Notes: generated from the sequence alone by a model not told the origin. 40,876 nucleotides of DNA from Candidatus Dormiibacterota bacterium (GCA_003170875.1 PMYJ01000035.1:1-40876); one strand, 5' to 3'. Positions 14,340-39,894 are shown, counted from the stretch's first letter. Program-made: numbers and translations.

Positions 14340-15101
14340 TCACTTCGCTGTGAACCCGCCGTCCAGCACCAGACAGCTACCGACGGCGAAGCTGCTCTCG
14401 TCGGACGCCAGGAACAACGCGCCGAAGGCGATCTCCCGGGCGTCAGCGATGCGCGCGATCGGTGCCCAGCTCGCCTGTTCCTGCGCGGTCTTGGCGGGAT
14501 CCAGGCTGTTGTCAACCTCCGCCTGTAGGAGTGGCGTCCTGGTGATACCCGGGCACAGGGCATTGACACGGATCCCATAACGAATGAGGTCCAGCGCAAT
14601 TGCCTTCGTGAACATGATCACCGCCCCTTTGCTCGCGTTGTAGGCAGGGGACTCTGGAACGGCGACAATGCCCATCTCGGAACCCAGCGTGATGATCGAG
14701 CCACCGCGATCCTTCATGAGCGGGACCGCAGCCTTGACCATCATGTACATGCCCTTGACGTTGGTCCCAAGCACGCGATCCCACTCATCCTCGTTCAGGC
14801 CCTCAATGGGCATGACGCTGGTGATTCCGGCGTTGCAGACCAGCACATCGAGCCCGCCAAAGCGCTCAATCGCCGTGTTGACCAGCAACTGCGCGCCGTC
14901 GACGAGCCTGACATCGGCGTGAACGAAGGCCACGCCGGCCCCGCCCAGGGTGGGGTCTGCGGCGGCCGTTGAGAGCGCTCGGTCATCGATGTCTCCGACG
15001 ACGACGCGGGCTCCCTCCTCCGCGAACAGGGCGGCGATCGCCCGCCCGATGCCGGACGCACCTCCGGTGACGATCGCGGATTTGCCCTCTAACCTCTTCA
15101 C
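14340..15101 (-). CDS. SDR family NAD(P)-dependent oxidoreductase
   Basis: TGGASGIG, CNAG, YNASK, IRVNALCPG, DGG; GTG start with GGAGAG RBS. Confidence 0.93.
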   Translation of the reverse strand: MKRLEGKSAIVTGGASGIGRAIAALFAEEGARVVVGDIDDRALSTAAADPTLGGAGVAFVHADVRLVDGAQLLVNTAIERFGGLDVLVCNAGITSVMPIEGLNEDEWDRVLGTNVKGMYMMVKAAVPLMKDRGGSIITLGSEMGIVAVPESPAYNASKGAVIMFTKAIALDLIRYGIRVNALCPGITRTPLLQAEVDNSLDPAKTAQEQASWAPIARIADAREIAFGALFLASDESSFAVGSCLVLDGGFTAK

Positions 15102-15402
15102 GTACGCTCTCCAACTTCCAGCGCCTGGTTCAGCTCGGAGTCTGGCATGCTCAGTCCGCCGCCCCAAGGGCGGTGCCTGCGGCGAAGGGCGGCTCCTCGA
15201 GCCGCCCGCCCGGGGACCGAGGTGGTCTTCGACGACATGGCGGGGTGAGCCACCCGAGGCCTCGGCGCTGGCCCTGCCATGCCAGACCGAGGTTGGGGGT
15301 GCCCCCCGATCCCGGGCGGCTCACCCCGGTGCAGGCCATGCTCCGGCGGGGGCAATCAGCGGGTCGTATAGGCCGTTTGGCACACAATTACTCGGGACTT
15401 AA

Positions 15403-15549
15403 GGGCTGCTGATCGGGGTGGGCATCCTGGTGGTGCTCAAGCTGCGCGGCAGGGAGGACTGGCTGCAACGAGCCGGTGACGTGATCGAGGAGCGTATCGA
15501 CCCGGCGGTGGAGGTGGGGCCAGCCGCGGGCTCACCGGCTGCGAGCTGA
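15403..15549 (+). pseudogene. 3' remnant of an APC amino-acid permease
   Basis: Startless frame GLLIGVGILVVLKLRGREDWLQRAGDVIEERID...* resembles the C-terminus of the 28101-29558 permease (LHFTGRGDWMRKAELAMEEE). Confidence 0.6.
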
Positions 15550-15615
15550 CTGGAGGAGAGACAAGGAGGCAGCTGGAGAGGGTTCCCGATCGTTCCCTAC
15601 ATGCGCGACCCCGAG

Positions 15616-16362
15616 TCAGGGCTGGCGACCGTCGAAACCATCCTCAATCCTGTCGACAACATCGCCGAGAAACCTGGCGGCGTACGCGCCGTCGACGACG
15701 CGGTGGTCGAAGCTGAGTGATAGGGTCGCCGGCCGGCCGAGCGCCGGCAGCGCCCGGAAGGCACCGATCCCCAGTACCCCCGTTTGCGGCGGCGTGATGA
15801 TCGGCGTGAACCCATCGATTCCGAGGGCGCCGAGATTGGTGATCGTGAAGGTCGCGCCTTCCACATCCGCAGCTTCGGATCGACCGGCCCGGGCACGCTC
15901 CACCATCGCCTGGAAGACGTCAGCGAGCTCCACCTCCGATCGTCTATCGGCTTCGCGGAGGACCACGATCGTCAACCCCTGAGTGGTCTCGACCGCCACT
16001 GCCACGTTGCGTTCTGGATGAACCAGGACGGCGGGGGGGTTCTCCATCCAGGATCCGTTCAAGAGCTCGTACGTGACGAGGCTACGCGCCACGGCGCCCG
16101 CGACGAGTGCATCGACGCTCGGTAGGGGATCCATGGCCCGGCGGCGCTCCAGCAACCTTGCGAACCGCACCTCACGATGAAGGGTGACAGCCGGAATCGT
16201 CAATGCCGCCTGGGTCATTCGCCGAGCGACGACTCGTCGGATGAGCGTGAGCGGTCGCACGTCCTGTGAGCCAGGGATGCCTGCCGGATACCGGGTGGCG
16301 GGATCGCCTTCGGTGTCCGTGACCCCTGAATCTCCGCCCGCGCCGTCCGAGCCAGAACCCAT
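15616..16362 (-). CDS. 2-oxoacid dehydrogenase E2 acyltransferase catalytic domain (stand-alone)
   Basis: ATFTITNLG, FTPIITPPQ, LSFDHRVVDGA; no lipoyl or E3-binding domain. Confidence 0.88.
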   Translation of the reverse strand: MGSGSDGAGGDSGVTDTEGDPATRYPAGIPGSQDVRPLTLIRRVVARRMTQAALTIPAVTLHREVRFARLLERRRAMDPLPSVDALVAGAVARSLVTYELLNGSWMENPPAVLVHPERNVAVAVETTQGLTIVVLREADRRSEVELADVFQAMVERARAGRSEAADVEGATFTITNLGALGIDGFTPIITPPQTGVLGIGAFRALPALGRPATLSLSFDHRVVDGAYAARFLGDVVDRIEDGFDGRQP

Positions 16363-16617
16363 TCAGTCGATCTCCTCGCCTGCTGTGGCGATGGTCCCGA
16401 TGACCGACAAGATTGCCGTCTCGGTGCCACCCGGCACGACAATCTTTCGAAGAATACCGTCCGCCGGCGATTCGACATCGAGCGAGATCTTCTCGGTCTC
16501 GACATGGACGAGCGGCTCCCCCTTGTGCACAGGGTCTCCCTCCTTCTTGAGCCACTCCACCACCAGGCCGACCTCCAGGTCCTGGCCTCCCTGCGGCATC
16601 ACGACGTTAACCAGCAT
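16363..16617 (-). CDS. Stand-alone lipoyl-domain protein
   Basis: MPQ...VVEWLKKEGDPV..GEPL..VETEK...VESPADG; lipoyl Lys in ETEK. Confidence 0.88.
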   Translation of the reverse strand: MLVNVVMPQGGQDLEVGLVVEWLKKEGDPVHKGEPLVHVETEKISLDVESPADGILRKIVVPGGTETAILSVIGTIATAGEEID

Positions 16618-16673
16618 TTCGGAACCCCTAGCTCACATCAGCAGACGACGTCGACGGGTCGCGATCGAGGCAC

Positions 16674-17666
16674 TCATCTCACCGGGATTGACGCGCCCAT
16701 CGAAGCCTCGATCCCAGCGACGATTTCGTCCACGGACGGAACGGCGGCACGCTGCAGCGACGTGTTGTACGGGATCGGGGTGTTCTTGCCGCAGACGCGG
16801 ATGATGGGGCCGGCGAGACTGTCGAACGCCTGCTCGACCACCGTCGCTGCGATATCACCCCCAATCCCACCCCGCTTGACCGCTTCGTGGACCACCACCA
16901 AACGGTGCGTGCGGCGAACCGACTCGATGATGGTGTCGGTGTCCATTGGCACCAAGCTGCGAAGGTCGATGATCTCGGCACTGATCCCGCGCTCGGCCAG
17001 GCGATCGGCTGCCTCCAGGCAACGGAGGGTCATCAACGAATAGGTGACGACGGTCACGTCGGTGCCGGCACGCTTCACGTCGGCGTGGCCCAGCGGGATC
17101 ACATAGTCCTCGTCAGGAACCTCGCCTTCGGTCATGTAGAGCAGCTTGTGTTCGATGAACATGACCGGATCGTCGTCGCGGATCGAAGCCTTGAGCAGAC
17201 CCTTGGCGTCGTACGGGGTGGACGGCATCACGACCTTCAACCCCGGCACGTGGTAGAAGAGCCCCTCGAGGCTCTGCGAGTGCTGCGCGGCGAGTGCCTC
17301 GCCCGCACCGCCCTGGGTTCTGATCACGAGCGGAACCCGACCCTGGCCGCCCGACATGAACCGGTACTTCGCCGCCTGGTTCACGATCTGGTCCATGGCC
17401 AGCATGACGAAGTCGACAAAGAGGATCTCCACCACCGGTCGAGCACCTGCGATGGCTGCCCCCGCCCCGAGACCGGTGAAGCCGGCTTCGGCGAGCGGTG
17501 TGTCAATCACTCGAGTCGGCCCGAACCGCTTCAGAAGGCCTTCCGTTACCCGAAAGGAGCCCCCCCGCTCGGCGATCCCTTCGCCAATGCAGAAGACAAG
17601 GGGGTCGCGTTCCATCTCTTCGGTGAGCGCAATCCGCAGGGCGTCCCGATATTTGATCTTCGCCAC
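16674..17666 (-). CDS. TPP-dependent dehydrogenase E1 beta subunit (acetoin/pyruvate DH-like)
   Basis: DTPLAEAG, RPVVEI.F.DF..LAMDQIVNQAAK, AQHSQS, IEHKLLY, IDLRSL.P.D. Confidence 0.93.
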   Translation of the reverse strand: MAKIKYRDALRIALTEEMERDPLVFCIGEGIAERGGSFRVTEGLLKRFGPTRVIDTPLAEAGFTGLGAGAAIAGARPVVEILFVDFVMLAMDQIVNQAAKYRFMSGGQGRVPLVIRTQGGAGEALAAQHSQSLEGLFYHVPGLKVVMPSTPYDAKGLLKASIRDDDPVMFIEHKLLYMTEGEVPDEDYVIPLGHADVKRAGTDVTVVTYSLMTLRCLEAADRLAERGISAEIIDLRSLVPMDTDTIIESVRRTHRLVVVHEAVKRGGIGGDIAATVVEQAFDSLAGPIIRVCGKNTPIPYNTSLQRAAVPSVDEIVAGIEASMGASIPVR

Positions 17667-17723
17667 TCGCTTTTCCTCAGTTCCTCGTCAGCGTCCAGTT
17701 TGGAAGGGGTCGATCCAGACCGG

Positions 17724-18683
17724 TCATGCGGCCGAGATCTCTGCCAGGAAGTCGGCCACGGCTGGCTCCGGGCTGTCGATCGCGAACTGGACGGCCTCGT
17801 CCATCAGCACCTCGATTCGCTGATCGATCTGCGCGATCTCGGCTTCAGCCACGCCAGCGTCGACCAGGTGCTGCCGCAATATGCCCACCGGGTCTCGGGC
17901 GCGCCACCGCTCCAGCTCGTCCTTTGGCATGTAGAGACCGGGGTCATTGACGTGATGGCCGCCCTGCCGGTAGGTCTTGCATTCGATGAGGGTCGGACCC
18001 TCTCCCGCCCGTGCTCGCTGGAGCGGCTTCTCCATCGCCGCACGCACAACGAGGGCATCGTTGCCGTCAACGGTCACACCAGGCATGCCGTATCCGGCCG
18101 CGCGCTCGGAGAGGTTCTCGACCAGGGCGGTATCACGGATAGGCGTCGATACGGCGTAGTTGTTGTTCTCCAGGACGAAGATCACCGGCAGGTGGTAGAT
18201 CGCCGCAAGGTTGAAGGATTCGTGGAGGGCCCCATTGGCTGCGGCACCATCGCTGCAGAACGACACGACCACATCCGAATCACCGCGCAGGTGAATGGCA
18301 AAAGCGGCACCGACCGCGAGCGGCATCCCGCCCGCCACGACACCGTTGGCTCCGAGATTGCGCAAGGCCAGGCTCGAGACATGCATGGACCCGCCCCGGC
18401 CCCGGCAGTATCCGGTGGCCTTTCCGAGAAGCTCCGCCATCATCAGGCGTGGCTCGTGGCCCTTGGCGATGGCATGACCGTGCCCGCGATGGGTGCTGAC
18501 GATGTAGTCCGATGGCCGCAGCGCAGCCACGGCGCCGACCGCGACGGCTTCCTCACCGAGGTAGGGGTGGAGGTAGCCGCGGATATTGCCGAGGCGATAC
18601 TGCTCGATGGCGCGCTGCTCGAACCGCCTGATCGTGAGCGCGGTTTCATACATTGCTGCGATCGACGCGGTTTCGACCGGCAT
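17724..18683 (-). CDS. TPP-dependent dehydrogenase E1 alpha subunit
   Basis: GYLHPYLGEEA, STHRGHGH, GRGGSMH, SDGA...ENN TPP motif, TYR..GH; AAGGGGAG RBS favours ATG 18683. Confidence 0.93.
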   Translation of the reverse strand: MPVETASIAAMYETALTIRRFEQRAIEQYRLGNIRGYLHPYLGEEAVAVGAVAALRPSDYIVSTHRGHGHAIAKGHEPRLMMAELLGKATGYCRGRGGSMHVSSLALRNLGANGVVAGGMPLAVGAAFAIHLRGDSDVVVSFCSDGAAANGALHESFNLAAIYHLPVIFVLENNNYAVSTPIRDTALVENLSERAAGYGMPGVTVDGNDALVVRAAMEKPLQRARAGEGPTLIECKTYRQGGHHVNDPGLYMPKDELERWRARDPVGILRQHLVDAGVAEAEIAQIDQRIEVLMDEAVQFAIDSPEPAVADFLAEISAA

Positions 18684-18737
18684 CTGCAACTCCCCTTCGG
18701 CGTCCAGGCTTGCGGATTCGATTGTGGCAACCTTCAG

Positions 18738-18779
18738 GCTGTTTTAGCGAATTATGCCGAAACAGCTCGCCGAGGTCAA
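18738..18779 (-). promoter_or_regulatory. sigma70-type promoter of the E1 operon with overlapping inverted-repeat operator
   Basis: Minus strand TTGACC-N17-CATAAT (18779-18751); GCTGTTT-N15-AAACAGC (18738-18766) spans the -10. Confidence 0.65.
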
Positions 18780-18916
18780 GCTTCCCGATGGCATGGCCCG
18801 CCGCGACAGGCTATAGGAGGGGGCAGGTGAGGAGCTCCCTCCAAACGCCCTCAACCCATCGAACCGACCATCGGTTGGACGGAGCGGATCCGGTTGGATG
18901 GAGCACCCCAACCGGC

Positions 18917-18945
18917 TTGTCAGGTGCCACCGATGTTGGTATTCT
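18917..18945 (+). promoter_or_regulatory. sigma70-type promoter of the deoR-TIM-aldolase-HAD operon
   Basis: TTGTCA-N17-TATTCT upstream of the AGGAGG RBS. Confidence 0.6.
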
Positions 18946-18985
18946 GTGGAATAATCCGCGTTTGTTCCTCTATCAGGAGGCGAGT

Positions 18986-19804
18986 ATGGAGCCACTCCGC
19001 CGACGCATCCCCGCGGATCGCCAGCGAGTTATCGCGTCAATCGTTCGGCAGAGCGGCAGCGTACGGGGCAGTGAGCTGGTCGACATCCTTGGCGTCACGG
19101 ACGAGACGATCAGGCGAGATCTGCTCCAGCTCGCCCTGAGCGGCGCGGTGCGACGGTCTCGAGGCGGAGCGGTCGCCATCAGCCCACTGGATGAGTCGAA
19201 CACGGATCTCCGCCTCCGTGAGCACGCCGCCGAGAAGATCGCAATCGGAACTCGGGCGGCTGACCTCGTCGAGGATGGCAGCCGGATCATCCTGGATTCG
19301 GGGACCACCACCCTTTGCCTCGCGCGAGCTCTGCGCCAGAAGCGGAACCTGACCGTGGTCACCACCGCGGTTACGCACGCCGTCGAGTTGATGGGGATCG
19401 CTGGAGCCACGGTTGTCATGACCGGCGGAGTGATCCGGCCCGCAACGTACGGGGCGAGCGGGCAGCTCGCTGTTGCAACGATTCGCGAAGTGCACGTCGA
19501 GCAGGTGTTTCTTGCGATTCACAGCGTTTCGGTCAAGGGCGGGCTCACCTACCCGAGCTTCGAGGAGGTCGAGGTGAAGCGCGCCATGATCGGTGCCGCC
19601 AGACGAGTGATCCTCCTGGCCGACCATTCGAAATTCGGCCGCGAGGCCTTCGTCAAGGTCGCGCCGATGCTTGCCGTCCATACCATCGTCACCACCCCTG
19701 GAATCGATCCCGCCGAGGCAGACGCGATACGCGAGCTCGGCATCGAGCTGATCGTGGCGCCCCTAGCAATCGAGTCGACCGATGCATCGTCGGTGACAAC
19801 CTGA
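18986..19804 (+). CDS. DeoR/GlpR family transcriptional regulator
   Basis: VTDETIRRDL HTH, RSRGGA, ILDSGTT, LADHSKFG; AGGAGG RBS. Confidence 0.93.
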   Translation: MEPLRRRIPADRQRVIASIVRQSGSVRGSELVDILGVTDETIRRDLLQLALSGAVRRSRGGAVAISPLDESNTDLRLREHAAEKIAIGTRAADLVEDGSRIILDSGTTTLCLARALRQKRNLTVVTTAVTHAVELMGIAGATVVMTGGVIRPATYGASGQLAVATIREVHVEQVFLAIHSVSVKGGLTYPSFEEVEVKRAMIGAARRVILLADHSKFGREAFVKVAPMLAVHTIVTTPGIDPAEADAIRELGIELIVAPLAIESTDASSVTT

Positions 19805-19921
19805 CTGAATCTCATGGAAGACCTTGGTGCCAACCATGTCAACGACGGTCGTAATCCGGAAGTTCGAAGCGTGCCGACGTTCGTGACAGATCCCCCAGAC
19901 CAGCGCGCCGTCCGGCGACCC

Positions 19922-20689
19922 ATGCGTCCTCTCATCGGCACCAGTTGGAAGATGCATCTGACCGCGAGCCAGGCGGTCCAATACTTGCAAACACTGCGAC
20001 CACTCGTTGCGGATCTCACAGATCGAGACCTCTTCGTTCTGCCGGCATATCCCGCGATCCCGGTCGCTCGAGAGCAACTGGATGGGAGCAACATCGCCTG
20101 GGGCGCTCAGGACGTCCACCCGGAAGACTGGGGTGCGCACACCGGTGATGTGTCCGCGCCGATGCTAGCGGACTTGGGCTGTCGCTACGTCGAGGTCGGG
20201 CACTCTGAGCGTCGGCGCGAACACGGCGAGACGACGGACGTGGTCGCACGAAAGATCGCCGCCGTCGCCCGCTGGGGTATGACGCCGATCCTCAGCATCG
20301 GCGATCAGCATCGTCACGGTCCCCAGGCTGCTCTAGCGGAGTTGATGCCGAGCCTCGAGCGCTTGCTGGCCGGCCTCCCGCGAGAATCTCTGGGCGATCT
20401 GGTCATCGCGTACGAGCCAGCTTGGGCGATCGGCGAAGGCGCCGCACCAGCCTCACCGGAGGAAGTCGGGGCCGTGCTTCGCGAGCTCCGCGCTTCGCCG
20501 CTCTTGAAAGGGGTCGAAGCATCTGGCGTTCGCCTGATCTACGGCGGCAGTGTCGACCAATCGATAGCCGAGGAGATGCTCAGCCAGCCGTGCGTCGACG
20601 GCCTGTTCATCGGACGGCAGGGACTTGATCCTTACACCTTCGCTGCACTGGCACGTACCCCCTGTTGTATGTCACACAGTGAGCCCTGA
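19922..20689 (+). CDS. Triosephosphate isomerase family, EryH (L-erythrulose-1-phosphate isomerase)-like
   Basis: GTSWKM (not GNWKM), GHSERR, AYEPAWAIG, YGGSV, DGLFIGR (not GxLVGGAS). Start uncertain (19814-19922). Confidence 0.85.
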   Translation: MRPLIGTSWKMHLTASQAVQYLQTLRPLVADLTDRDLFVLPAYPAIPVAREQLDGSNIAWGAQDVHPEDWGAHTGDVSAPMLADLGCRYVEVGHSERRREHGETTDVVARKIAAVARWGMTPILSIGDQHRHGPQAALAELMPSLERLLAGLPRESLGDLVIAYEPAWAIGEGAAPASPEEVGAVLRELRASPLLKGVEASGVRLIYGGSVDQSIAEEMLSQPCVDGLFIGRQGLDPYTFAALARTPCCMSHSEP

Positions 20690-20743
20690 CCGGTGGACAG
20701 ATGCCAGGAGCAGCCACCAATCATCTGAAGGGAAGGTGCAGCC

Positions 20744-21598
20744 ATGCCTGTCGTACGGACCAAAGCCATCCTCGAGCGCGCTTTCGAGGAGCGCTACGGA
20801 GTTGCCGCGATCAACGTGGTGGACGAACTGACCATGGAGGCGGTCCTGGCGGCCGCTGAAGAGCTGCGCGCGCCAGTCATCGTCCAGACCTCAGTCAAGC
20901 ACGTTGTGATGACCGGGGTTGGGGTCATGTACGCGATGTGGCGTGAGTTGACCAAGACGATCACCGTCCCGGTTGCGCTCCACCTCGACCACTGCCCCGA
21001 CCGTACCTTGATCAGCGAGTGTCTGGCCGCCGGCTGGAGCTCGGTGCTCTTCGACGCCAGCAAGCTGACGGTGGAGGAGAACATGCGCCAGTGCATCGAG
21101 GTGGTCGCCGAGGCGCGCCGCCACGGGGCTGACGTGGAGGGCGAGATCGAGGGCTTCAAGCGGACCGAGGAGATGACCGGCGACGAGGCGGAGCACGTCC
21201 AGTCGCTGAAGACGGTGGTCGAGTTCGTCCAGGCCACCGGGGTCGACGTCTTCGCCCCCGCGATCGGCAACGCCCACGGGGTGTACGCGACCACCCCCCA
21301 CCTGGACAGCCAGCGGGTCACCGACATCGTCGAGGCCACCGGCATCCCGGTCGCCCTCCACGGCGGGACGGGGATGACCCCCGAGCAGTTCAGCGATCTG
21401 ATCAGCCGAGGCTGCGCCAAGGTCAACATCTCGACCGCGCTGAAGATCGCCTTCATGAAATCCGGGTACGAGTACATGAGCGCGCATCCCGGGGAGTACG
21501 ATCCGCCGGCGATCTTCAAGGCCCAGCGGGGCGCGGTTATGGACATGGCCCGGCACCACATCCGCCTCTTCGGGAGCGAAGGGAAGGCGTGGGCGTGA
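20744..21598 (+). CDS. Class II fructose/tagatose-bisphosphate aldolase family
   Basis: LHLDH, VEGEI, IGNAHG, LHGGTG, KVNIST. Confidence 0.92.
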   Translation: MPVVRTKAILERAFEERYGVAAINVVDELTMEAVLAAAEELRAPVIVQTSVKHVVMTGVGVMYAMWRELTKTITVPVALHLDHCPDRTLISECLAAGWSSVLFDASKLTVEENMRQCIEVVAEARRHGADVEGEIEGFKRTEEMTGDEAEHVQSLKTVVEFVQATGVDVFAPAIGNAHGVYATTPHLDSQRVTDIVEATGIPVALHGGTGMTPEQFSDLISRGCAKVNISTALKIAFMKSGYEYMSAHPGEYDPPAIFKAQRGAVMDMARHHIRLFGSEGKAWA

Positions 21599-22392: not shown

Positions 22393-22421
22393 CGGGAAGC
22401 CCAACGGTCGAGCCGACGCCA

Positions 22422-22472
22422 GACACCTGCGGAAGGTGTCAGCCAGGCGGCGGCCCCGCCGCCAGGCGGGGC
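22422..22472. terminator. Two GC hairpins between convergent HAD and RLP genes
   Basis: GACACCT/AGGTGTC and GCCCCGCC/GGCGGGGC stems; no U-tracts. Confidence 0.4.
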
Positions 22473-22510
22473 GAGGGGCGCTGATACGGCGGAGTCAGGC
22501 CGCCGAGAGG

Positions 22511-23830: not shown

Positions 23831-23902
23831 CGTTAACTCACTTCCAATAGGGTTGGTCGTTCTCGTGCCGGAACTCCCTCGGTTGCTGGGCTGCGCCCCG
23901 GC

Positions 23903-24910: not shown

Positions 24911-24918
24911 GATGAATC

Positions 24919-24985
24919 GATCATTTGCTCACTAAATGAGCAGAAGCCATAGCCGCACGCTAGCACAGCCCTCGCTGACTGGCAA
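24919..24985 (-). promoter_or_regulatory. Promoter and operator of the sorC-like/RLP unit
   Basis: Minus strand TTGCCA-N17-TAGCGT with TG extension (24985-24957); palindrome TGCTCA-N5-TGAGCA at 24926-24942. Confidence 0.65.
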
Positions 24986-25039
24986 GCGTCCTTCGGCCCG
25001 GGTCCTCACAGAAGCGTCAAGACACCGGATTCGGCCCCC

Positions 25040-27998: not shown

Positions 27999-28100
27999 TA
28001 GGTGATGACCCAGCGTTGAGGGAGCCAGGGCGGCGGGGGGTCGACCCCCAGCCGAGGAGGGCGCTGCGGTCCAGCAGCCGGGTTGTAGAAGGGTGAGGCG

Positions 28101-29558: not shown

Positions 29559-29697
29559 GGGCCTGGCGCCGAACAAGAACAGCTGACGGTGGCAAATCCT
29601 CCCCTCGAGCCGCACCGGAGACCCCCGAGGAGGTCGAGCAACTCAGACCCAACGGGTCTGAGCCGGGATTCCACATACCGATCGGAGGTCTAAGGAG

Positions 29698-30465: not shown

Positions 30466-30502
30466 GCCGCATGGCGCGACCCCGTAGCGCCAGGGGGTGT
30501 CG

Positions 30503-33054: not shown

Positions 33055-33178
33055 CGGCGGGTGGCGTGGACGCTGTGCTCGTCCGCTCCGCTGGTATGGC
33101 GGGTGGGAGGCTCCCTTTCCGGCCCTACATTGGGTGCCACCCGGATTGCCGCCGCTCGGGAATTCATGGGAGGTCCAG

Positions 33179-34147
33179 ATGAGTGAGCCACAGAGCCCGA
33201 CACCGGGCAGCCTCGTCTCCCACGAGGAGTTCGACCAGATCTTCGAGGCGGTCAAGAACTGGGGCAGGTGGGGGCCCGACGACCAGCTGGGCACCCTGAA
33301 CTACATCACCCCGGAGAGGATCAGCACTGCCGCCGGCCTGGTGAAGTCTGGCCGCCGGGTGTCCATGGCCCTGCCGGTCAACAAGGTGGCCGGCCCCGAC
33401 AACCCCAACCCGGCGGTCCACTTCGTGAGCCAGGGGCATGACGTCGACATCAAGTCGGGCGGGGTGCGCTTCGGCATGGACTACCTGGGCATGGCCTGCC
33501 ATGGCGACTCGCACACTCACGTCGATGCGCTCTGCCACATCTCCTACCGGGGTCTGGTCTACAACGGCCAGCCGGCAGGTGCGGTCCTCACGTCGCAGGG
33601 GGCCACCTCGCTGGACGTGGCCGCCTATTGCCGCGGCGTGGTCGGGCGTGGGGTGCTCCTGGACGTCCCCCGCCATCGCGGAGTCAAGTGGCTGGAGCCG
33701 GGGGAGGCGGTCACCCGGGGGGAGCTCGAGGAGATCGAGCAGGCCGAAGGGGTGCGACTCGGCGAGGGTGACATCCTGGTGTTCCGGACCGGGCACAACC
33801 GGCGCCGCCTGGAGCTCGGTCCCTGGAGCAACGACGCGCCCCCGCGCGGCGAGGGCAAGGCCGGTCTCCATGTCAACACCATCCCCTGGATGCACGAGCG
33901 CCGGATCGCCGCCTTCCTGCCCGACGGCGACGGTGAGGCCATCCCCAGCTCGGTGGAGGGCATCGTCTACCCGATCCATCCACTCCAGATCGTGGCCATG
34001 GGCATGCTGGCCTCCGATAGCCTGGACCTGGAGGAGGTCGCCGCCGCCTGCGCGGAGGAAGGGCGCTTCGAGTTCATGGTGGTCGGCCTTCCCCTGCGTC
34101 TGGGGGGCGGCACCGGCTCGCCTTGGAACCCCATCGCCCTCTTCTAG
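33179..34147 (+). CDS. Cyclase-family (kynurenine formamidase-like) metal hydrolase
   Basis: NWGRWGPDDQLGTLN, HGDSHTHVDALCH, GRGVLLD, GGTGSPWNP; GGAGG RBS. Confidence 0.9.
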   Translation: MSEPQSPTPGSLVSHEEFDQIFEAVKNWGRWGPDDQLGTLNYITPERISTAAGLVKSGRRVSMALPVNKVAGPDNPNPAVHFVSQGHDVDIKSGGVRFGMDYLGMACHGDSHTHVDALCHISYRGLVYNGQPAGAVLTSQGATSLDVAAYCRGVVGRGVLLDVPRHRGVKWLEPGEAVTRGELEEIEQAEGVRLGEGDILVFRTGHNRRRLELGPWSNDAPPRGEGKAGLHVNTIPWMHERRIAAFLPDGDGEAIPSSVEGIVYPIHPLQIVAMGMLASDSLDLEEVAAACAEEGRFEFMVVGLPLRLGGGTGSPWNPIALF

Positions 34148-34153
34148 AGCGAC

Positions 34154-35200
34154 ATGGCCGCTGACGAGAACATGACCAACCGGCCCCGGCCGGCGGACGC
34201 AGCCGGCCAGGAGGCGGACGGGGTCGACCGGGGCGCGGTTCGCCGAGCTCGAGACAGGCGGGCAGCTCCTCCGGCTCACGTCCACCTCCGTCCCCGAGCC
34301 GTGGCCGATCTCGTCCCCATCCTGGCCCGACGCTTCCTCGGCGAGCTGGAGCCGGGCTCCCCCATGCCGACGGTGCGGAGCCTGGCGGTCCAGCTCCACT
34401 CCAGCCTGGCCTCGATCCACGTGGCCATCACCCGGCTGGAGGAGGCGGGGGCCATCGAGTTCGAGACCCGCGGTCGGGCCGGCGCCCTCCTGGTGGACCG
34501 CTCGCTGGGCTCGCTGTGGTCGATCGCCGAGGGCGGGCCGCTGGTCGTTGCCATGCCGCTGGCCTCGTCGGAGCGCTACGAGGCGCTCGCCACCGCGCTC
34601 AAGCAGGTGATGACGGAAGCCGGGCTCGACGTCTTCTTCATCTTCGTGCGCGGCTCGCGGCAGCGGCTGCAGGCGATGCACGACGGTCGCTGCCACCTGG
34701 CGGTGATGTCGAGCTTCGCCGCCGGCGAGGTGTGCGGCCCGGATGAGGCGGTGGTGGCCGAGCTTCTGCCTCTCTCCTACAACACCGGGCACCGGGTCTT
34801 CTTCGTGGCCGGCCGGGAACCGGCGGTGCCGCTCCGGGTAATCATCGACCGCTCCTCGGCCGACCAGCAGCTGCTCACTCGCATCGAGTTCGCCGATCCG
34901 CAGGTGCGCCTCGTCCCGGCCATGTACTCTCAGATCGTCCGGCTGCTGGAGACCGGGGCGGCGGACGCGGCGGTGTGGACCGTCGACGAGATGGATGCTC
35001 GGCGCTCGCCGGCGCTCACGGGCCGGCCCATGTCGGAGATGGCGCAGCGGCGGGTCGGCGACCGCGACACCCGGGCCACCCTGGTCGGTGCCGCCGTCGA
35101 CGCCGCGGCGCTCCGCGCCCTGGCCTCGGTGCTCATCCCGGAGCGCGTCGAGGCCATCCAGCACGACGTCATGTCGGGCAGGCTGGTGGCGGAATACTAG
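34154..35200 (+). CDS. yhfZ: YhfZ-family regulator (wHTH plus YhfZ C-terminal domain)
   Basis: MPTVR..A wHTH; AMPLASSERYEALATALK, RGSRQR, AVMSSFAA, DRSSADQ and a terminal ..Y resemble E. coli YhfZ as recalled. Confidence 0.78.
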   Translation: MAADENMTNRPRPADAAGQEADGVDRGAVRRARDRRAAPPAHVHLRPRAVADLVPILARRFLGELEPGSPMPTVRSLAVQLHSSLASIHVAITRLEEAGAIEFETRGRAGALLVDRSLGSLWSIAEGGPLVVAMPLASSERYEALATALKQVMTEAGLDVFFIFVRGSRQRLQAMHDGRCHLAVMSSFAAGEVCGPDEAVVAELLPLSYNTGHRVFFVAGREPAVPLRVIIDRSSADQQLLTRIEFADPQVRLVPAMYSQIVRLLETGAADAAVWTVDEMDARRSPALTGRPMSEMAQRRVGDRDTRATLVGAAVDAAALRALASVLIPERVEAIQHDVMSGRLVAEY

Positions 35201-35265
35201 CCGTGCCCACGCGGCATCGCCCTGCCCCTGGCCTCCTCCCAGCGCCACGAGGCTCTCGCGTCGTG

Positions 35266-36201
35266 ATGGACGTTGACGTGGCGCTCGTTCCCGCTCAGGC
35301 GGACTCGTGGGGGCCGAGAGTGTGTGTGATGGTCGACGAGCTTCGCGCCAGTTCGACGCTCACCACGCTGCTCGATCTCGGCTGCCCGGGCGTCCTGGTC
35401 ACCGCCAGTCTCAGCGAAGGACGCCGCCTCGCCAGGGAACGCGGCAGCCTGCTCGCCGGAGAGCGCAAGGGCCAAACCCCGCGCGGGTTCGACGCGAACA
35501 ACTCACCGACCCAGCTCCGGGGGATGGGCGTGGGGGGTCGTGAGGTGATCCTCTGCACCACCAATGGAACCGCGGTGCTGAGCCGGTTGCGCCGCATGCC
35601 CTCGGTGCTCGTCGGGTGCCTGCTCAATGCCCGTGCCACCGCGGAGGTGGCCCTCCGCCTGGCCGATCGTCGCCACACAGGGATCGGGATCGTCTGCGCC
35701 GGCCAGCGTGGCCGCTTCGCGCTCGATGACACGGTCGCCTCGGGCCTGATCGTGGAGCACCTGCTCGCCGCCGCCAGCAGGCAGGGTCGGGAGTGCCGCT
35801 TGACCGACGCCGCCCACGCCGCCGTGCGCCTCCGGGCAGCACAGCCGGATGACCTCACGGCACTTCGCGAGTCGGGCAGCGGGCGTCAGCTGGCCGCCCT
35901 GGGGGCTGGTGCCGACATCGAGTTCTGCAGCCGGGCCGACAGCACCGCGACAGTCCCGTTTCTACGGCCCGGGGATGTTCTCACCATCGCTGTCTTCGAG
36001 GATGGCGGTGACGGCGATGGCCCGGCCGGGCGCCTCGCTGGTCGAGGCGCGCCCGGACCGCCGTCGACGGAGGTCCCGCCGGGAGCCGCGGACCGCCGCA
36101 GGCCCGATCCATCTGGGGCGGAGGCCCACTCAGACTCGTCTCAGCCGGGCTCGCGCGGGCCCGTGAGCCCCGGGAGAGCCCGTTACCGGAGGTCCCCATG
36201 A
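35266..36201 (+). CDS. comB: 2-phosphosulfolactate phosphatase (ComB) family
   Basis: VDELRASST, GERKG..P.GFD..NSP, TTNGT, VCAG, DD..A.G; long low-complexity C-tail. Confidence 0.85.
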   Translation: MDVDVALVPAQADSWGPRVCVMVDELRASSTLTTLLDLGCPGVLVTASLSEGRRLARERGSLLAGERKGQTPRGFDANNSPTQLRGMGVGGREVILCTTNGTAVLSRLRRMPSVLVGCLLNARATAEVALRLADRRHTGIGIVCAGQRGRFALDDTVASGLIVEHLLAAASRQGRECRLTDAAHAAVRLRAAQPDDLTALRESGSGRQLAALGAGADIEFCSRADSTATVPFLRPGDVLTIAVFEDGGDGDGPAGRLAGRGAPGPPSTEVPPGAADRRRPDPSGAEAHSDSSQPGSRGPVSPGRARYRRSP

Positions 36202-38600
36202 CCACTCCACCAGACCTGGCGACAGCCGCCCGCAGCGCAGCGGGATCGGCTGCCGACGTGGCTCGGCTGCATGCCGCGGCAGAGCCGGACTTCGCTCGCT
36301 ACGAGGTCCTCAAGGACATTGTCGACGAATGCATCGACCTCTCCCTCAACTATCGGCAAAGCGGTCACCCGGGCGGCTCGCGCTCGAAGGTCCACCTGCT
36401 GCTCGCCCTGCTGCTCTCCGGAGCGATGCGCTGGGACATCAGACGGCCGTGGCTTCGGTTCGCAGATCGCTTCGTGCTCTCCGCCGGACACACGGTGCCC
36501 GTGGTCTACTCCACCCTTGCCGTGCTGAACGAGAGCCTCCGGGCGCGGCACGAGCGGAGCGGCGACCCCCGGTTCGCCTTTCCCGCCGGCGGGCGCCACG
36601 CCCTGACCTGGGAGTGGCTCCTCGAGCTGCGGCGCCGGGGCGGCCTACCCGGCCACCCGGAGATGGCAGGGCGCACCCTTTTCCTCAAGTTCAATACCGG
36701 GCCGTCGGGGCATGGCATGCCACCGGCCGCCGGTGAGGCCCTCGCCCTCAAGCTGGCCGGCGCCGGGGAGGTGAAGGTCTTCGTCGTCGAGGGGGAGGGT
36801 GGGCTGACCGCCGGCGCTGCTCATGAGACCCGGACCTTGGCCTGGGGACTTGGCCTCGGCAACCTCGTCTTCCTGGTCGACTGGAACGACTTCGGCATCG
36901 ATCCCCGCCCGGCCTCGAGCGTGGTGGCGGGTACCCCGGTCGACTGGTTCGCTCCCTACGGCTGGAGGGTCAACGGGACCGAACAAGGCTCGGATTGGGA
37001 GCCGGTGACGCGCGCCGTCCTTGAGGCCGCCTGCGGTGACAACCCGGAGGGGGTGCCCAGCATGGCCTGGTTCCGGACCCGCAAAGGTCGTGGCTATGGC
37101 AAGCAGGACGCCGCCAGCCATGGCAGCCCATGGCCGATGAACTCCGCGGAGTTCTGGGCGACCCGTCACCAGTTCATGGCGCGGTATGGGGTGGAGTACA
37201 AGGGCGTCGATGCCCCGGCGCCCGCGGCTGCGGCGGAGCTGCGCGGGCAGGCTGAAGCCAACCTGCGCGTGGCCATGGATGTCCTCCGCCGGGACGACGC
37301 CCTGGTGGGGTGGCTCTCCGACCGTCTCCTGGCTCTCGCGGACAGCGTGCCGGAACAGATCGACGGCTTTCGCCTGGACGGCACGACCGCTAGGGTCTTC
37401 ACCGACCGGAGGCTCTTTGACGTGCAGAGCTACCCGGCGGGGATGTGGAAGCAGCCGGGGGAGAGGGCACCCAACCGCGCTGCGCTGGGAGCCTGGGGCG
37501 CGTACGTCAACGCGGTCGCCAGGCGGGACTACGGGCGTCCCCTCTTCATCGCCGCCTCGGCCGACCTCGCCGAGTCCACCAACATCGCAGGCTTCGCCCA
37601 CGACTCCGGTGATCTGCCGGGTTCCGGCTGGTACGAGCGGAGTTCCAACCCGCACGGAGCGCTGCTGCCCACCGAGATCACCGAGTTCACCAATGCCGGT
37701 TTGCTGGCCGGCATGGCATCCGTGAATCTGGCGGCGGACCCGTTCACCGGCTACGACGGCTTCTGGGGGGCGTGCTCGACCTACGGGTCGTTCTCGTACC
37801 TCAAGTACGGCCCCATGCGTCTCTTCAGCCAGCTCGCCCAGGACTGCGACCTGCGAGTGGGGAGGCTGCTCTGGATCGCCGGGCATTCGGGCCCCGAGAC
37901 CGCGGAGGACTCGCGGACCCATTTCGGCATCTTCGAGACCGGCGTCACCCAGCTCTTCCCCGAGGGGCAGGTCATCGACCTCCATCCGTGGGAGTACAAC
38001 GAGGTGCCGGTCGTCCTCGCTGCGGCCTTCTCGTCCCAGGTTCCGATCGTCGTCCTGCATCTGACGCGGCCGGCCATCCAGATCCCGGACCGGGTCGCTC
38101 TGGGCATGCCCTCTCACCTGGAGGCGGCGCGGGGGGCATATGTCCTCCGTCCCTTCCGAGACGGCCCGGCGAAGGCGGGCACGGTCTATGTCCGGGGCAC
38201 GATGGCGACCCACAACGTTCTCCAGGTGCTGCCCGAGCTGGACCGGCTGGAGCTCAACGTCAAGGTCGTGGCGGCGATCAGCCCCCAGCTGTTCGCGATC
38301 CAGGACCGGGCTTACCGAGAGAGCGTGGTCGGCCCCGCCGACCGTGTGGACGCCATGGTGGTCACCAACGGCGCGTTCTCCCTCATGCACCACTGGGCCG
38401 GAGGCCCTCTGGTGCGGGAGTACTCGCTGTCCGCCGACTGGGATGACCGCTGGCGGACCGGGGGGACACTCGAGGAGGTCATCGAGGAAGCCCATCTCGA
38501 CCCCGGGCACATCCTCGAGGCGATCGAGCGGTTCGCCGTTGAGCGCTCGAGGCGGCTGGGTGCGCTCCGGGATGACCTCGAGTCCGCGCTTGGTCGCTGA
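36198..38600 (+). CDS. Divergent 800-aa transketolase-family TPP enzyme
   Basis: SGHPGG, DRFVLSAGH, GHPE, NTGPSGHG, GEG...DWN, ADL, ITEF, EDSRTH, LTR. Confidence 0.85.
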   Translation: MTTPPDLATAARSAAGSAADVARLHAAAEPDFARYEVLKDIVDECIDLSLNYRQSGHPGGSRSKVHLLLALLLSGAMRWDIRRPWLRFADRFVLSAGHTVPVVYSTLAVLNESLRARHERSGDPRFAFPAGGRHALTWEWLLELRRRGGLPGHPEMAGRTLFLKFNTGPSGHGMPPAAGEALALKLAGAGEVKVFVVEGEGGLTAGAAHETRTLAWGLGLGNLVFLVDWNDFGIDPRPASSVVAGTPVDWFAPYGWRVNGTEQGSDWEPVTRAVLEAACGDNPEGVPSMAWFRTRKGRGYGKQDAASHGSPWPMNSAEFWATRHQFMARYGVEYKGVDAPAPAAAAELRGQAEANLRVAMDVLRRDDALVGWLSDRLLALADSVPEQIDGFRLDGTTARVFTDRRLFDVQSYPAGMWKQPGERAPNRAALGAWGAYVNAVARRDYGRPLFIAASADLAESTNIAGFAHDSGDLPGSGWYERSSNPHGALLPTEITEFTNAGLLAGMASVNLAADPFTGYDGFWGACSTYGSFSYLKYGPMRLFSQLAQDCDLRVGRLLWIAGHSGPETAEDSRTHFGIFETGVTQLFPEGQVIDLHPWEYNEVPVVLAAAFSSQVPIVVLHLTRPAIQIPDRVALGMPSHLEAARGAYVLRPFRDGPAKAGTVYVRGTMATHNVLQVLPELDRLELNVKVVAAISPQLFAIQDRAYRESVVGPADRVDAMVVTNGAFSLMHHWAGGPLVREYSLSADWDDRWRTGGTLEEVIEEAHLDPGHILEAIERFAVERSRRLGALRDDLESALGR

Positions 38601-38688
38601 TCCATGTCAACGCCGAAAGATGAGCCGTGCGTGCTGACCGCGCCGGCCCAGCACGTCCCGATGGATCCGTTCAACTGGAGATGATGAG

Positions 38689-39894
38689 ATGTCGGAGATG
38701 AGATTCGCGGAGCGGATGTCGCGGCTGGGGACCGAGTCGGCGTTCGTGGTGCTGGCCCGCGCCCGCCAGCTCGAGGCCGAAGGACGGGAGATGATCCACC
38801 TGGAGATTGGCGAGCCCGACTTCTCCACCCCGGACAACATCATCGAGGCCGCGGTCCAGGCCCTGCATGCCGGTGCGACGCACTACACGCCGGCGAGCGG
38901 GATCCGGGAGGTGCGCGAAGCGACCGCGCGCCACGTCACCCGTCAGACCGGGAGTCCGACCAGCCCGGAGCAGATCGTGCTCGTCCCGGGGAGCAAGAAC
39001 ATCCTCCATTTCCTCCTCCTCGCCCTGGTAGAACCGGGGGACGAGGTGCTGGTCCCCGACCCCGGCTATCCCATCTACAGCTCCCTGGTCAGCTTCGTCG
39101 GTGCCAAACCGGTTTCGGTGCCCATCCGCGAGGCCAACCAGTTCCGCCTGGACGTCGAGGAGCTGCGCTCCCTGGTGACCGAGCGGACCCGGGTCCTGGT
39201 GGTGAACAGCCCGGCCAACCCGACCGGTGGGGTGCTCACCCGCGAGGACTGCGAGGCGATCGCGACGCTGGCCCAGGAACGCGACCTCTTCGTGCTGAGC
39301 GACGAGATCTACTCGCGGATCGTCTATGACGGCGCCCACGTCTCCCTCTACGGCATCGACGGGATGGCGGAGAGGTGCGTCCTCATGGACGGGCTCTCCA
39401 AGACCTGGGCGATGTGCGGCTGGCGCCTCGGCTTCGGCGCGATGCCGGTGGAGCTCGCCCAGCGGATGGACACGCTGATGATCAACACCTCCTCGTGCGC
39501 GGCCGCCTTCACCCAGCTGGCGGCGATCGAGGCCTTCGAATCGCCGGAGTCGGATGCCGCCGTCGCGGCGATGGTGGCCGAGTTCTCCGCTCGGCGTGAT
39601 CTGATCGTGGACGGCCTCAACGGCATCCCCGGGATCCGCTGCCACAAGCCGTCGGCCACCTTCTACGTCTTCCCCAACGTGGAGGGGACCGGCTGGGACG
39701 AGCGCGACCTCCAGCGAGGGCTCATCGAGGAGGCGGGCGTCGCGGCCCTCTCGGGGACCGCCTTCGGCAGCTGGGGCAGGGGGTACTTGCGCTTCAGCTA
39801 TGCCAACAGCCAGGCCAACCTGCGCAAGGCCGTCGATCGCGTGGCCGCCTTCCTGGCCACGGCGCACGCCCAAGCCGTGAAGCCGAGCAGGTGA
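38689..39894 (+). CDS. Class I/II PLP aminotransferase (AspAT-like)
   Basis: IGEPDF, NSPANPTG, SDEIY, SKTWAMCGWRLG, LRFSYA. Confidence 0.94.
   Translation: MSEMRFAERMSRLGTESAFVVLARARQLEAEGREMIHLEIGEPDFSTPDNIIEAAVQALHAGATHYTPASGIREVREATARHVTRQTGSPTSPEQIVLVPGSKNILHFLLLALVEPGDEVLVPDPGYPIYSSLVSFVGAKPVSVPIREANQFRLDVEELRSLVTERTRVLVVNSPANPTGGVLTREDCEAIATLAQERDLFVLSDEIYSRIVYDGAHVSLYGIDGMAERCVLMDGLSKTWAMCGWRLGFGAMPVELAQRMDTLMINTSSCAAAFTQLAAIEAFESPESDAAVAAMVAEFSARRDLIVDGLNGIPGIRCHKPSATFYVFPNVEGTGWDERDLQRGLIEEAGVAALSGTAFGSWGRGYLRFSYANSQANLRKAVDRVAAFLATAHAQAVKPSR

Follow-up and report, generated by a model that had tools for sequence, protein, structure and literature searches.

A recurrent accessory gene island in a Candidatus Dormiibacterota genome carries a RuBisCO-like protein of an uncharacterised clade

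INTRODUCTION

What is the task of a RuBisCO-like protein (RLP) that sits among genes for uptake, oxidation, phosphorylation and carbon-carbon chemistry? This question is raised by a stretch of 40,876 bp from Candidatus Dormiibacterota bacterium (GCA_003170875.1, PMYJ01000035.1), hereafter the window, which is a complete contig (C57) of a 3.03-Mb metagenome-assembled genome that is 81% complete and belongs to Chloroflexota according to the names of its homologues. An earlier reading of the sequence (the original prediction) had taken all genes between positions 14340 and 39894 for one undescribed, RLP-centred pathway, or several linked routes, degrading an amino- or branched-chain sugar. We show that positions 15562-35212, about 20 kb running from the gene of an E2 acyltransferase core to that of a YhfZ-type regulator, form a real, accessory and recurrent catabolic island, and that its RLP belongs to a clade, so far uncharacterised, other than that of the methionine-salvage enolase MtnW. 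As the best explanation, which we regard as evenly balanced between being right and being wrong, the island is assembled from recurring modules of soil and peat Chloroflexota, and its RLP branch would run parallel to a branch of the Lsr type.

The known functions of RLPs are few, namely methionine salvage, the 5'-methylthioadenosine (MTA)-isoprenoid shunt, and the catabolism of apionate and hamamelose. The clade described here adds a testable frame for a new pathway, and probably for a new RLP reaction. No published account of the cluster was found in the literature searched, which covers few subscription journals and no supplements, and the earlier view that the gene combination is undescribed stands. 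New here are the limits and accessory status of the island, the exclusion from it of a transketolase-like protein (TKL), an aminotransferase (AT), a short-chain dehydrogenase/reductase (SDR1) and an aldo-keto reductase (AKR), the loss of the metal site in a protein of D-threonine-aldolase fold (DTA1), a reciprocal test seeded from a cyclase-fold hydrolase, and the link to LsrK and LsrF.

RESULTS

An accessory island of about 20 kb

The clade RLP and the block around it occurred in only one of the 15 other genomes of the genus (G014), whose RLP is 97% identical to that of the window; the five other RLP matches among the 41 genomes searched were 29-31% identical. The block common with G014, at 92-96% nucleotide identity, covers window positions 15562-20702, 22488-25007, 26260-27399 and 27905-35212. 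Synteny begins at 15562 and ends at 35212, the YhfZ-type regulator being the last gene, and the DUF4432 gene is relocated in G014. Within the genus, the block is present or absent as a unit (the relatives counted as being without it include G017, G027, G032 and G036). GC content is 0.635-0.684 over window 14-24 kb, against 0.69-0.73 upstream.

Near-identical DNA was found in at least 15 peat, soil and bog runs from many studies. The gene arrangement is not an assembly artefact, as the TIM-FBA2, HAD-RLP, SorC-DUF4432-AKR and APC-to-cyclase junctions (genes as listed below) are spanned by independent contigs from a soil and a sediment run. In one peat RNA library, short contigs fell on E2/lipoyl, E1b, DeoR, RLP, SDR2, FGGY and DTA1, a weak hint of expression; bins without cover in this run are not evidence of silence.

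Gene families were assigned from Pfam (46 open reading frames, ORFs) and NCBIfam (23 ORFs). Since GC content is about 70%, most long ORFs of the window are spurious. The genes of the region are:

14340-15167, minus strand: SDR1 (PF13561)
15616-16362, minus strand: E2 catalytic core (PF00198, E 1.4e-51)
16366-16617, minus strand: 84-aa stand-alone lipoyl carrier (PF00364, E 1.5e-15)
16674-17666, minus strand: E1 beta, E1b (PF02779 and PF02780)
17724-18689, minus strand: E1 alpha, E1a, thiamine pyrophosphate (TPP) enzyme of the pyruvate/acetoin-dehydrogenase type (PF00676, E 3.9e-79)
18986-19804, plus strand: DeoR-family regulator, divergent from E1a (PF08220 and PF00455)
19814-20689, plus strand: triose-phosphate-isomerase (TIM) paralogue (PF00121)
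20744-21598, plus strand: class II ketose-bisphosphate aldolase, FBA2 (PF01116)
21589-22392, plus strand: HAD-IA phosphatase, HAD (PF00702)
22511-23830, minus strand: form IV RLP, Tyr112/Glu114 type (PF00016 and PF02788)
23903-24910, minus strand: SorC-family regulator adjoining the RLP (PF04198; weak LsrR and DeoR(Bacillus) matches)
25040-26158, minus strand: DUF4432 protein, aldose-1-epimerase-like (PF14486, E 8e-91)
26292-27341, minus strand: AKR (PF00248)
28101-29558, plus strand: APC-family permease (PF13520, PF00324)
29698-30465, plus strand: SDR2, resembling aldose 1-dehydrogenases (PF13561)
30497-31960, plus strand: FGGY sugar kinase (PF00370, PF02782)
31957-33054, plus strand: DTA1, fold-type III pyridoxal phosphate (PLP) enzyme of D-threonine-aldolase fold (PF01168 and PF14031)
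33179-34147, plus strand: cyclase-fold putative metal hydrolase (PF04199)
34154-35200, plus strand: YhfZ-type GntR regulator (PF00392 and PF14503)
35266-36201, plus strand: ComB-family phosphatase (PF04029)
36198-38600, plus strand: TKL, 800 aa (Pfam/NCBIfam)
38689-39894, plus strand: AT (Pfam/NCBIfam)

All families named by the original prediction were found in their places by Pfam and NCBIfam, with the exception of a glutamate dehydrogenase (GDH) fragment: ORFs beyond 39894 were without a Pfam match even at E 0.01, and a six-frame search of the genome with PF00208 and PF02812 found three GDH genes, on contigs C35 and C194, none of them in the window. Three genes had been overlooked, those of the cyclase-fold hydrolase, the E2 core without a lipoyl domain, and the 84-aa lipoyl carrier. 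On contig C35 (3227-8483), a second TKL paralogue (65-70% identity) lies in three pieces with two in-frame TGA codons between two GDH genes, and this arrangement may have been the source of the GDH idea.

Four transcription units and three regulators (DeoR, SorC, YhfZ-type) can be read in the island region: E1a-E1b-lipoyl-E2(-SDR1) on the minus strand, DeoR-TIM-FBA2-HAD on the plus strand, AKR-DUF4432-SorC-RLP on the minus strand, and APC-SDR2-FGGY-DTA1-cyclase-YhfZ(-ComB-TKL-AT) on the plus strand.

The FBA2-HAD pair (20703-22487) is missing from the G014 island. Twelve other genomes of the genus have it at 84-89% nucleotide identity, next to a paralogue of SorC, and a truncated copy lies on contig C34 of the present genome; the pair in the window is therefore a recruited second copy of a genus-core module. 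FBA2 itself scored 222.6 bits with TIGR00167, above the cut-off of 215.6. The C34 copy (locus L079, 4373-5956) lies in a locus of the glycerol/dihydroxyacetone (DHA) type; only about 100 residues of its aldolase are left, read through into HAD in one ORF. This could be a decaying gene replaced by the island copy, or an assembly defect.

An RLP clade outside MtnW

The protein has both large-chain domains of the RuBisCO superfamily and its carbamate-lysine/Asp/Glu metal site; K189, D191 and E192 are invariant in 121/121 clade proteins. We tabulated active-site residues with archaeal RuBisCO-like rows, which carry the full residue set, as an internal reference. The RLP retains Lys163, Lys189-Asp-Asp-Glu, His280, Gly352/353 and Gly375/376. 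In the numbering of spinach RuBisCO (full active-site set K175 to G403/404), the equivalents of K175, K201, D203, E204, H294, K334, G380/381 and G403/404 are kept, and those of K177, R295, H298 and S379 are replaced by Ser, Leu, Ser and Gly, respectively, with Glu at N123. Because of this pattern of retained and replaced residues, the site points to metal-dependent enolisation with a single phosphate pocket rather than to a carboxylase.

Carboxylating RuBisCO of forms I-III was also considered and set aside, the full active-site set being incomplete in the RLP. With the OiaX model (NF042437), the protein scored 178.7 bits for a cut-off of 700.

Could the RLP be MtnW, that is, the 2,3-diketo-5-methylthiopentyl-1-phosphate (DK-MTP-1-P) enolase of methionine salvage? 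Its nearest solved relatives are indeed MtnW enolases (2oek, E 3e-88), its top NCBIfam matches are MtnW models, and many of its homologues bear that name at JGI. Nonetheless, both equivalog scores are below cut-off (NF007095, 373.2 for a cut-off of 409; TIGR03332, 337.5 for 513.6). The FGK of the MtnW structures 2oek, 2oej and 2zvi aligns with YGE in the window protein, which places Glu114 at MtnW Lys98, and in this column the 121 clade proteins have Glu (80) or Asn (41), never Lys. As the original prediction had said, the window is without mtn genes; neither mtnA (TIGR00512) nor mtnK (TIGR01767) turned up in the genome, which is 81% complete and in which mtnB, mtnX and mtnD were not searched for. 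Moreover, every locus examined had a sugar- and amine-related gene context. A canonical MtnW function is thus hardly credible.

Homologues are numerous, with at least 890 at E <= 0.001 among 8000 candidates scored, and the 120 matches listed were all at least 60% identical; the clade is present in bacteria that are widespread in peat and soil. Where clade members carry a source name, they pass for DK-MTP-1-P enolase or ribulose-bisphosphate carboxylase, which neither scores nor residues support. The correction matters since genes of this clade are now tallied as methionine-salvage or RuBisCO genes in metagenome surveys.

A sister sub-clade has His112/Asn114 (11 loci and one partial), with SorC, ComB, UPF0261 and phosphoenolpyruvate (PEP)-hydrolase-like genes as neighbours. 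The window RLP is 70-75% identical to this sub-clade, yet it has Tyr/Glu and a DTA/cyclase context. In a quick tree it fell within a 13-row clade with the His/Asn RLPs (support 85), whose inner order is unresolved. That the window RLP is a lineage joining the two known contexts, the DTA/cyclase one and that of the His/Asn sub-clade, is new.

In the same genome, contig C87 (locus L078, 258-20000) holds a second cluster, without RLP, made of two ComB, two UPF0261, PEP-hydrolase-like, Tyr-phosphatase-like, IclR, transaldolase-family and aldehyde dehydrogenase (ALDH) genes, together with a fused E1, E3, a complete E2, a Zn-dependent alcohol dehydrogenase (Zn-ADH), a cyclase-fold protein and a Mo-hydroxylase. 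Families of this cluster also flank His/Asn sub-clade RLPs elsewhere.

In three unrelated contexts the RLP has a phosphatase gene at its side: HAD-IA in the window, ComB in loci of the His/Asn sub-clade, and in Georgenia a HAD of the Cof type. By analogy, this adjacency recalls the enolase-phosphatase pair of Bacillus and Geobacillus, in which MtnX is, according to passages of PMC6302742, the phosphatase partner of MtnW in methionine salvage. The likeness extends to the carbamate-lysine KDDE metal site and the one phosphate site; the differences are Glu114 for Lys98 and neighbours that are not mtn genes but those of a kinase, a PLP enzyme and lipoyl/E1E2 proteins.

Two cultured actinobacteria, Georgenia sp. 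Z1491 (L049) and Actinomycetales bacterium JB111 (L046), have an RLP at 41-42% identity with Asn at the 114 position. Neighbours in L049 are a Cof-type phosphatase, FGGY, Zn-ADH, fused E1, full E2, FBA2, HAD, IclR and ALDH. FGGY, a Cof-type phosphatase, E1/E2 and FBA2-HAD accompany the RLP in L046 as well as in L049. Both strains are possible experimental models.

Genes that recur with the RLP

A scan with one genome per species gave 68 loci, of which we used the 42 whose RLP was at least 50% identical in the best segment, leaving out L015 of the same genus; genes were read from filtered ORFs plus Pfam on short-read loci. A partner was counted when a homologue with at least 45% identity (30% for APC) and at least 30% coverage lay within 10 kb of the RLP. 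DTA1 was the most frequent (22/42), followed by FGGY (20/42), the cyclase (17/42), SDR2 (15/42), TIM (13/42), DUF4432 (12/42) and APC (11/42, at 33-38% identity). DeoR and YhfZ were each present in 9/42 loci, E1a and E1b in 8/42, SorC in 7/42, FBA2 in 6/42, HAD in 5/42, E2 and ComB in 3/42. None of these partners was seen in the 20 loci whose RLP or RuBisCO was at most 35% identical (0/20).

A frequent arrangement is a single colinear operon, (YhfZ)-APC-DUF4432-SDR2-lipoyl-FGGY-DTA1-DTA2-DTA3-RLP-cyclase. In L036, L039 and L054, E1a-E1b-lipoyl-E2-DTA1-cyclase lie on one strand with short gaps, beside RLP/TIM-HAD-FBA2. Of the 30 clade loci that do not belong to the His/Asn sub-clade, 24 had a homologue of the lipoyl carrier (55-72% identity), and three of the six loci without one start inside the DTA genes. 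Together with FGGY and DTA1, the carrier and the RLP make up a tight set.

Might the assembly nonetheless be a chance juxtaposition, in which acetoin/pyruvate-dehydrogenase-like, triose/polyol and D-hydroxy-amino-acid operons lie next to an orphan RLP with its own regulator? Four units with three different regulators and no common operator-like motif would agree with this, as would the cyclase, SDR2 and APC genes occurring mostly without a clade RLP, E1ab lying near the RLP in a minority of loci, and FBA2-HAD being part, elsewhere in the genus, of a locus of the glycerol/DHA type. Yet single-strand operons link APC, DUF4432, SDR2, lipoyl carrier, FGGY, DTA1 and RLP-cyclase in many genomes, the E1a-to-cyclase run of L036, L039 and L054 is co-directional, and the block comes and goes as a unit in the genus, its partners being absent around distant RLPs. 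We consider chance juxtaposition improbable. Indeed, homologues of FGGY, DTA-like, SDR2, DUF4432 and APC proteins recur beside clade RLPs in other genomes, and so do those of YhfZ, TIM, FBA2/HAD, E1ab and DeoR, often in one colinear operon. Neither of the outcomes that the original prediction had named as refuting it, a lack of co-occurrence in other genomes or a canonical MtnW, was borne out. Co-location exceeds chance for a core of the genes and not for every one.

The opposite view is that of the original prediction, that is, one RLP-centred pathway or linked routes comprising every gene of 14340-39894, with TKL, AT, ComB, both SDRs and AKR. The genes are contiguous, the ComB stop overlaps the TKL start, and in L008, L009, L011, L040 and L044 an RLP of the sister sub-clade has a ComB-family gene beside it. 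However, TKL, AT, SDR1 and AKR each scored 0/42. SDR1, ComB, TKL and AT lie outside the block common with G014, where ComB is not beside YhfZ and synteny stops at 15562 and 35212. TKL orthologues (69-93% identity) occur in 12 relatives without a clade RLP, and none in G014, which bears the island; in addition, FBA2-HAD is copied from a genus-core pair. TKL and AT are not part of the RLP system, and a single 25-kb pathway is very improbable. AKR stands apart in that it is 97% identical in G014 and lies inside the common block, yet it was never found at RLP loci beyond the genus.

The partner enzymes

The closest solved relative of DTA1 is the D-threonine aldolase of A. xylosoxidans (AxDTA; PDB 4v15, E 7e-60). 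DTA1 has the fold of the AxDTA/BhcC family and aligns with its PLP lysine (Lys59) and stacking tyrosine (Tyr187), the Lys being kept in every orthologue that covers the position. The AxDTA Mn2+ ligands His347 and Asp349 and the proposed base His193 are described as conserved among these aldolases in a portion of PMC4401734. In DTA1 they are Gln, Arg and Pro, respectively. Gln/Arg was seen in 22/22 DTA1 orthologues and Tyr/Pro in 30 DTA2/3 paralogues. The 'PLP aldolase' of the original prediction was right as to fold; since metal ligands and base are replaced, the reaction may be retro-aldol cleavage, elimination or racemisation. The DTA1 ATG overlaps the FGGY stop.

FGGY had gluconate kinase, AI-2 kinase and xylulokinase as top PDB matches, all at about E 1e-27, and gave 119 bits with the LsrK equivalog for a cut-off of 528. 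L-rhamnose 1-dehydrogenase and glucose 1-dehydrogenase were the top NCBIfam matches of SDR2, both below cut-off. DUF4432 resembles PDB 3ty1, a 'hypothetical aldose 1-epimerase' (E 2.9e-20). The cyclase-fold protein matches the uncharacterised PDB 5ibz (E 1e-46), has a His/Asp cluster that is invariant in 9/9 orthologues, and is labelled only 'cyclase family' in a protein atlas.

The TIM paralogue is the second TIM of this genome (PF00121, 205 bits against 271 for the copy on C200) and keeps the catalytic K/H/E motifs. Its orthologues often accompany RpiB and DhaKL (L035, L086, L124), an arrangement that may be compared with that of DerI and of tetrulose-phosphate isomerases of the EryH/TpiA2 type, where a TIM paralogue additional to TpiA goes with genes for an RpiB-type isomerase and an erythrulose kinase. 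No RpiB is present in the window, and RpiB of the related loci scored 165 bits with the D-erythrulose-4-phosphate isomerase model, whose cut-off is 240.

As for the dehydrogenase-like genes, E1a scored 347 bits with TIGR03182 (cut-off 394) and E1b 412 bits with NF006667, above the cut-off of 321. The lipoyl carrier has an ETEK lipoyl-lysine motif and its top NCBIfam match is the lipoyl region of acetoin-dehydrogenase E2. The E2 core has an intact DHRVVDG motif and neither lipoyl nor E3-binding domain; its ATG directly follows the TGA of the lipoyl ORF, with GAGGAG upstream. Acetoin and pyruvate dehydrogenases likewise combine the two E1 chains with a lipoyl domain and with an E2 acyltransferase core bearing DHRxxDG. 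The system here differs by its E2 split into an 84-aa carrier and a core, by the lack of E3 in the window (one is on contig C87), and by the lipoyl carrier occurring alone inside RLP operons of other genomes.

The reciprocal test and the Lsr link

With an alignment of nine RLP-linked cyclases as seed, more than 577 relatives were found on metagenome contigs, and the best 80 (58-77% identity) were kept. These loci carried a DTA-like protein of the Tyr/Pro type (48/80), APC (31/80, some copies about 50% identical), SDR2 at 60% identity or more (29/80), a VOC protein and a second FGGY (21/80 each), a DeoC/LacD-family protein (20/80), DUF4432 (18/80), and a 2-hydroxyacid dehydrogenase and a SorC-like regulator (15/80 each). 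A lipoyl carrier homologue was present in 1/80.

In the four loci tested (L035, L147, L100 and L120), the second FGGY is a true LsrK by score, with 614, 577, 561 and 638 bits for an equivalog cut-off of 528. The DeoC-family protein of the same loci is LsrF, with 479, 472, 457 and 480 bits (cut-off 297). The APC/DUF4432/SDR2/cyclase set is thus common to Lsr-type clusters. A first module (APC, DUF4432, SDR2, cyclase-fold hydrolase, YhfZ) is widespread and, outside this genome, usually comes with LsrK and LsrF orthologues. A second module (FGGY, DTA1, lipoyl carrier, RLP) is colinear with the first in many genomes and recurs with E1ab and the E2 core. The TIM paralogue, the DeoR and SorC regulators and the copied-in FBA2-HAD complete the island. 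LsrF and VOC homologues were not found in the present 81%-complete genome.

Passages of PMC8016206 describe LsrK as phosphorylating 4,5-dihydroxy-2,3-pentanedione (DPD), LsrG as isomerising phospho-DPD, and LsrF as moving the acetyl group to CoA with release of dihydroxyacetone phosphate. In a FastTree of 92 cyclases, for which support values were not considered, the RLP-linked cyclases grouped together, along with two Lsr-linked ones and several from short contigs, and the Lsr-linked majority was their sister group.

Distant RLPs (35-36% identity) were present in 3/80 cyclase loci. In these metagenome contigs (L103, L125, L127), they lie a few kb from cyclase/DTA-like genes, with ComB in addition, and RLPs may have been recruited to the cyclase/DTA module more than once.

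DISCUSSION

A proposed route and its weighing

We propose that the substrate is an amine-bearing sugar-like compound, because the island combines an APC permease, PLP enzymes, a mutarotase-like DUF4432 and an aldose-1-dehydrogenase-like SDR. The compound would be imported, SDR2 and the cyclase-fold enzyme would then act on it by oxidation or hydrolysis, its amino(-acid) part would be removed by the PLP enzyme, and the carbon skeleton would be phosphorylated by FGGY. The resulting keto- or diketo-monophosphate may then be enolised or isomerised by the RLP, whose metal, carbamate-lysine and first-phosphate sites are retained and in which the MtnW lysine and the second-phosphate site of RuBisCO are missing. 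Cleavage of the RLP product by E1ab, the lipoyl carrier and the E2 core would yield an acyl-CoA and a small sugar phosphate, to be finished by the TIM paralogue and the aldolase. The 'amino-' of the original prediction is thereby plausible as a conjecture, and its 'branched-chain sugar' found no support. We also weighed S-ribosylhomocysteine, Amadori compounds and D-glucosaminate as substrates; analogy speaks for them and nothing further.

By analogy with the Lsr system, the RLP branch may be a non-orthologous parallel to LsrK, LsrG and LsrF, and the only one of the two branches in this genome. In other genomes the cyclase/SDR2/APC/DUF4432 module comes with true orthologues of LsrK and LsrF, and a SorC-family regulator is present here. 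The order of steps would also be alike, the Lsr route proceeding from a kinase through diketone-phosphate isomerisation to acyl transfer to CoA (PMC8016206). The difference lies in an RLP and a TPP/lipoyl system in place of LsrG and LsrF, a presumed equivalence. Other RLPs may be compared as well: passages of PMC6302742 report that the D-apionate RLPs (OiaC/OiaX/OiaT) and the 5-methylthioribulose 1-phosphate (MTRu-1-P) 1,3-isomerase of R. rubrum act on kinase-made keto-sugar(-acid) monophosphates in catabolic or salvage clusters. Unlike the apionate clusters, the window showed no DUF1537 kinase or ApnO-like gene in its Pfam scan. To our knowledge, neither the apionate nor the MTRu-1-P isomerase pathway includes DTA-fold PLP enzymes, a lipoyl carrier or a cyclase-fold hydrolase.

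A more specific version is rather unlikely, namely that the Glu114-type RLP is a new enolase or isomerase for a phosphorylated vicinal diketone or 1-deoxy-ketose, coupled to a new use of a TPP/lipoyl system and, with the FGGY kinase, replacing or accompanying LsrK/LsrG/LsrF in soil Chloroflexota. The substrate, stemming from an amine-bearing sugar, would then resemble phospho-DPD or be a C6 homologue, and E1ab, the free lipoyl carrier and the bare E2 core would give acetyl-CoA and a triose or tetrulose phosphate.

A different chemistry, which we hold to be unlikely on balance, is the degradation of an amino sugar by a non-phosphorylative oxidative route. DUF4432 would act as mutarotase, SDR2 as aldose 1-dehydrogenase and the cyclase-fold protein as lactone hydrolase; PLP-dependent cleavage of a 2-amino-2-deoxy-aldonate would give glycine and a tetrose or triose, then phosphorylation and isomerisation would lead to erythrose-4-phosphate or triose phosphate. 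The RLP would be a tetrulose- or ketose-phosphate isomerase or epimerase, and E1/E2 would be peripheral. The family resemblances fit (3ty1 for DUF4432, Lra1 and glucose 1-dehydrogenase for SDR2, gluconate kinase for FGGY), an APC-type permease is present, and the TIM paralogue occurs with RpiB and DhaKL in the loci cited above. But DTA1 is without the Mn ligands and base of the aldolase, we know of no PF04199 lactonase, the RLP and lipoyl carrier would have no necessary role although both are in the operon core, and the LsrK/LsrF link would be unexplained.

Several observations weigh against the route and parallel branch that we favour. No island enzyme has an assigned substrate, and SDR2 as aldose dehydrogenase and the cyclase-fold protein as lactone or amide hydrolase are suggested by sub-cut-off similarity. 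The step assigned to E1ab is weakened by their presence near the RLP in just 8/42 loci, which are mutually related. The reciprocal counts were low: a clade RLP was present in 1/80 cyclase-seeded loci (the best 80 of more than 577), and an RLP lay immediately upstream of the cyclase in 1/54 evaluable loci. The early module (uptake, SDR2, cyclase) therefore does not need the RLP, without which it mostly occurs, and 'RLP-centred' overstated the part of this protein. Many Limnocylindria-type loci carry the RLP set together with LsrK/LsrF/VOC and RpiB-DhaKL-TIM; as both sets are there, the RLP branch is in these loci an addition and not a substitute, and the parallel loses force. A single regulated pathway also fits poorly with four transcription units and three regulators, and no operator-like motif common to the four intergenic regions was found beyond shuffles. 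MtnW Lys98, on which part of the distinction from MtnW turns, is reportedly the catalytic base (Imker et al. 2007). Lastly, the RNA-library contigs may be DNA carry-over and are no proof of transcription. The Tyr/Glu versus His/Asn pattern, tried as independent, convergent evidence of specificity, was discarded as such, one Glu-to-Asn change being sufficient in the quick tree.

The conserved partners of the RLP and the genuine LsrK/LsrF genes of sister loci, taken together, suggest that in soil organisms Lsr-type enzymes also serve catabolism, in addition to the processing of quorum signals.

Regulatory signals and neighbouring genes

Promoter-like sites lie at 18779-18751, before E1a, and at 27960-27988, before APC; 3/4 promoter-like matches fell within the two divergent intergenic regions. 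Between the 27960-27988 site and the APC start at 28101 lies a perfect 14-bp palindrome (GGGGGTCGACCCCC, 28036-28049), a candidate operator or hairpin, near which small indels were seen in other samples. The DeoR ATG at 18986 is preceded by AGGAGG, and the YhfZ-type regulator scored 204 bits with NF041241 for a cut-off of 260. Little could be learned from a scan for terminators, which gave 4 where 7 were expected and none in the right-hand part.

Upstream of the island, window 18-5128 carries on the minus strand a NiFe-hydrogenase-type cluster with a HycI-like maturation protease, a NiFeSe_Hases large subunit, an Oxidored_q6 small subunit, an NAD-binding/FeS subunit and 4Fe-4S proteins. It is followed by an ORF of the GH5 cellulase family (5333-6778) and by a 614-aa ORF (11209-13053) in which only residues 396-584 match a Thy1 (ThyX) domain and which is probably over-extended in this high-GC DNA. 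A CopG-type antitoxin-like ORF (13915-14253) lies just left of 14340, near the left edge of the lower-GC region.

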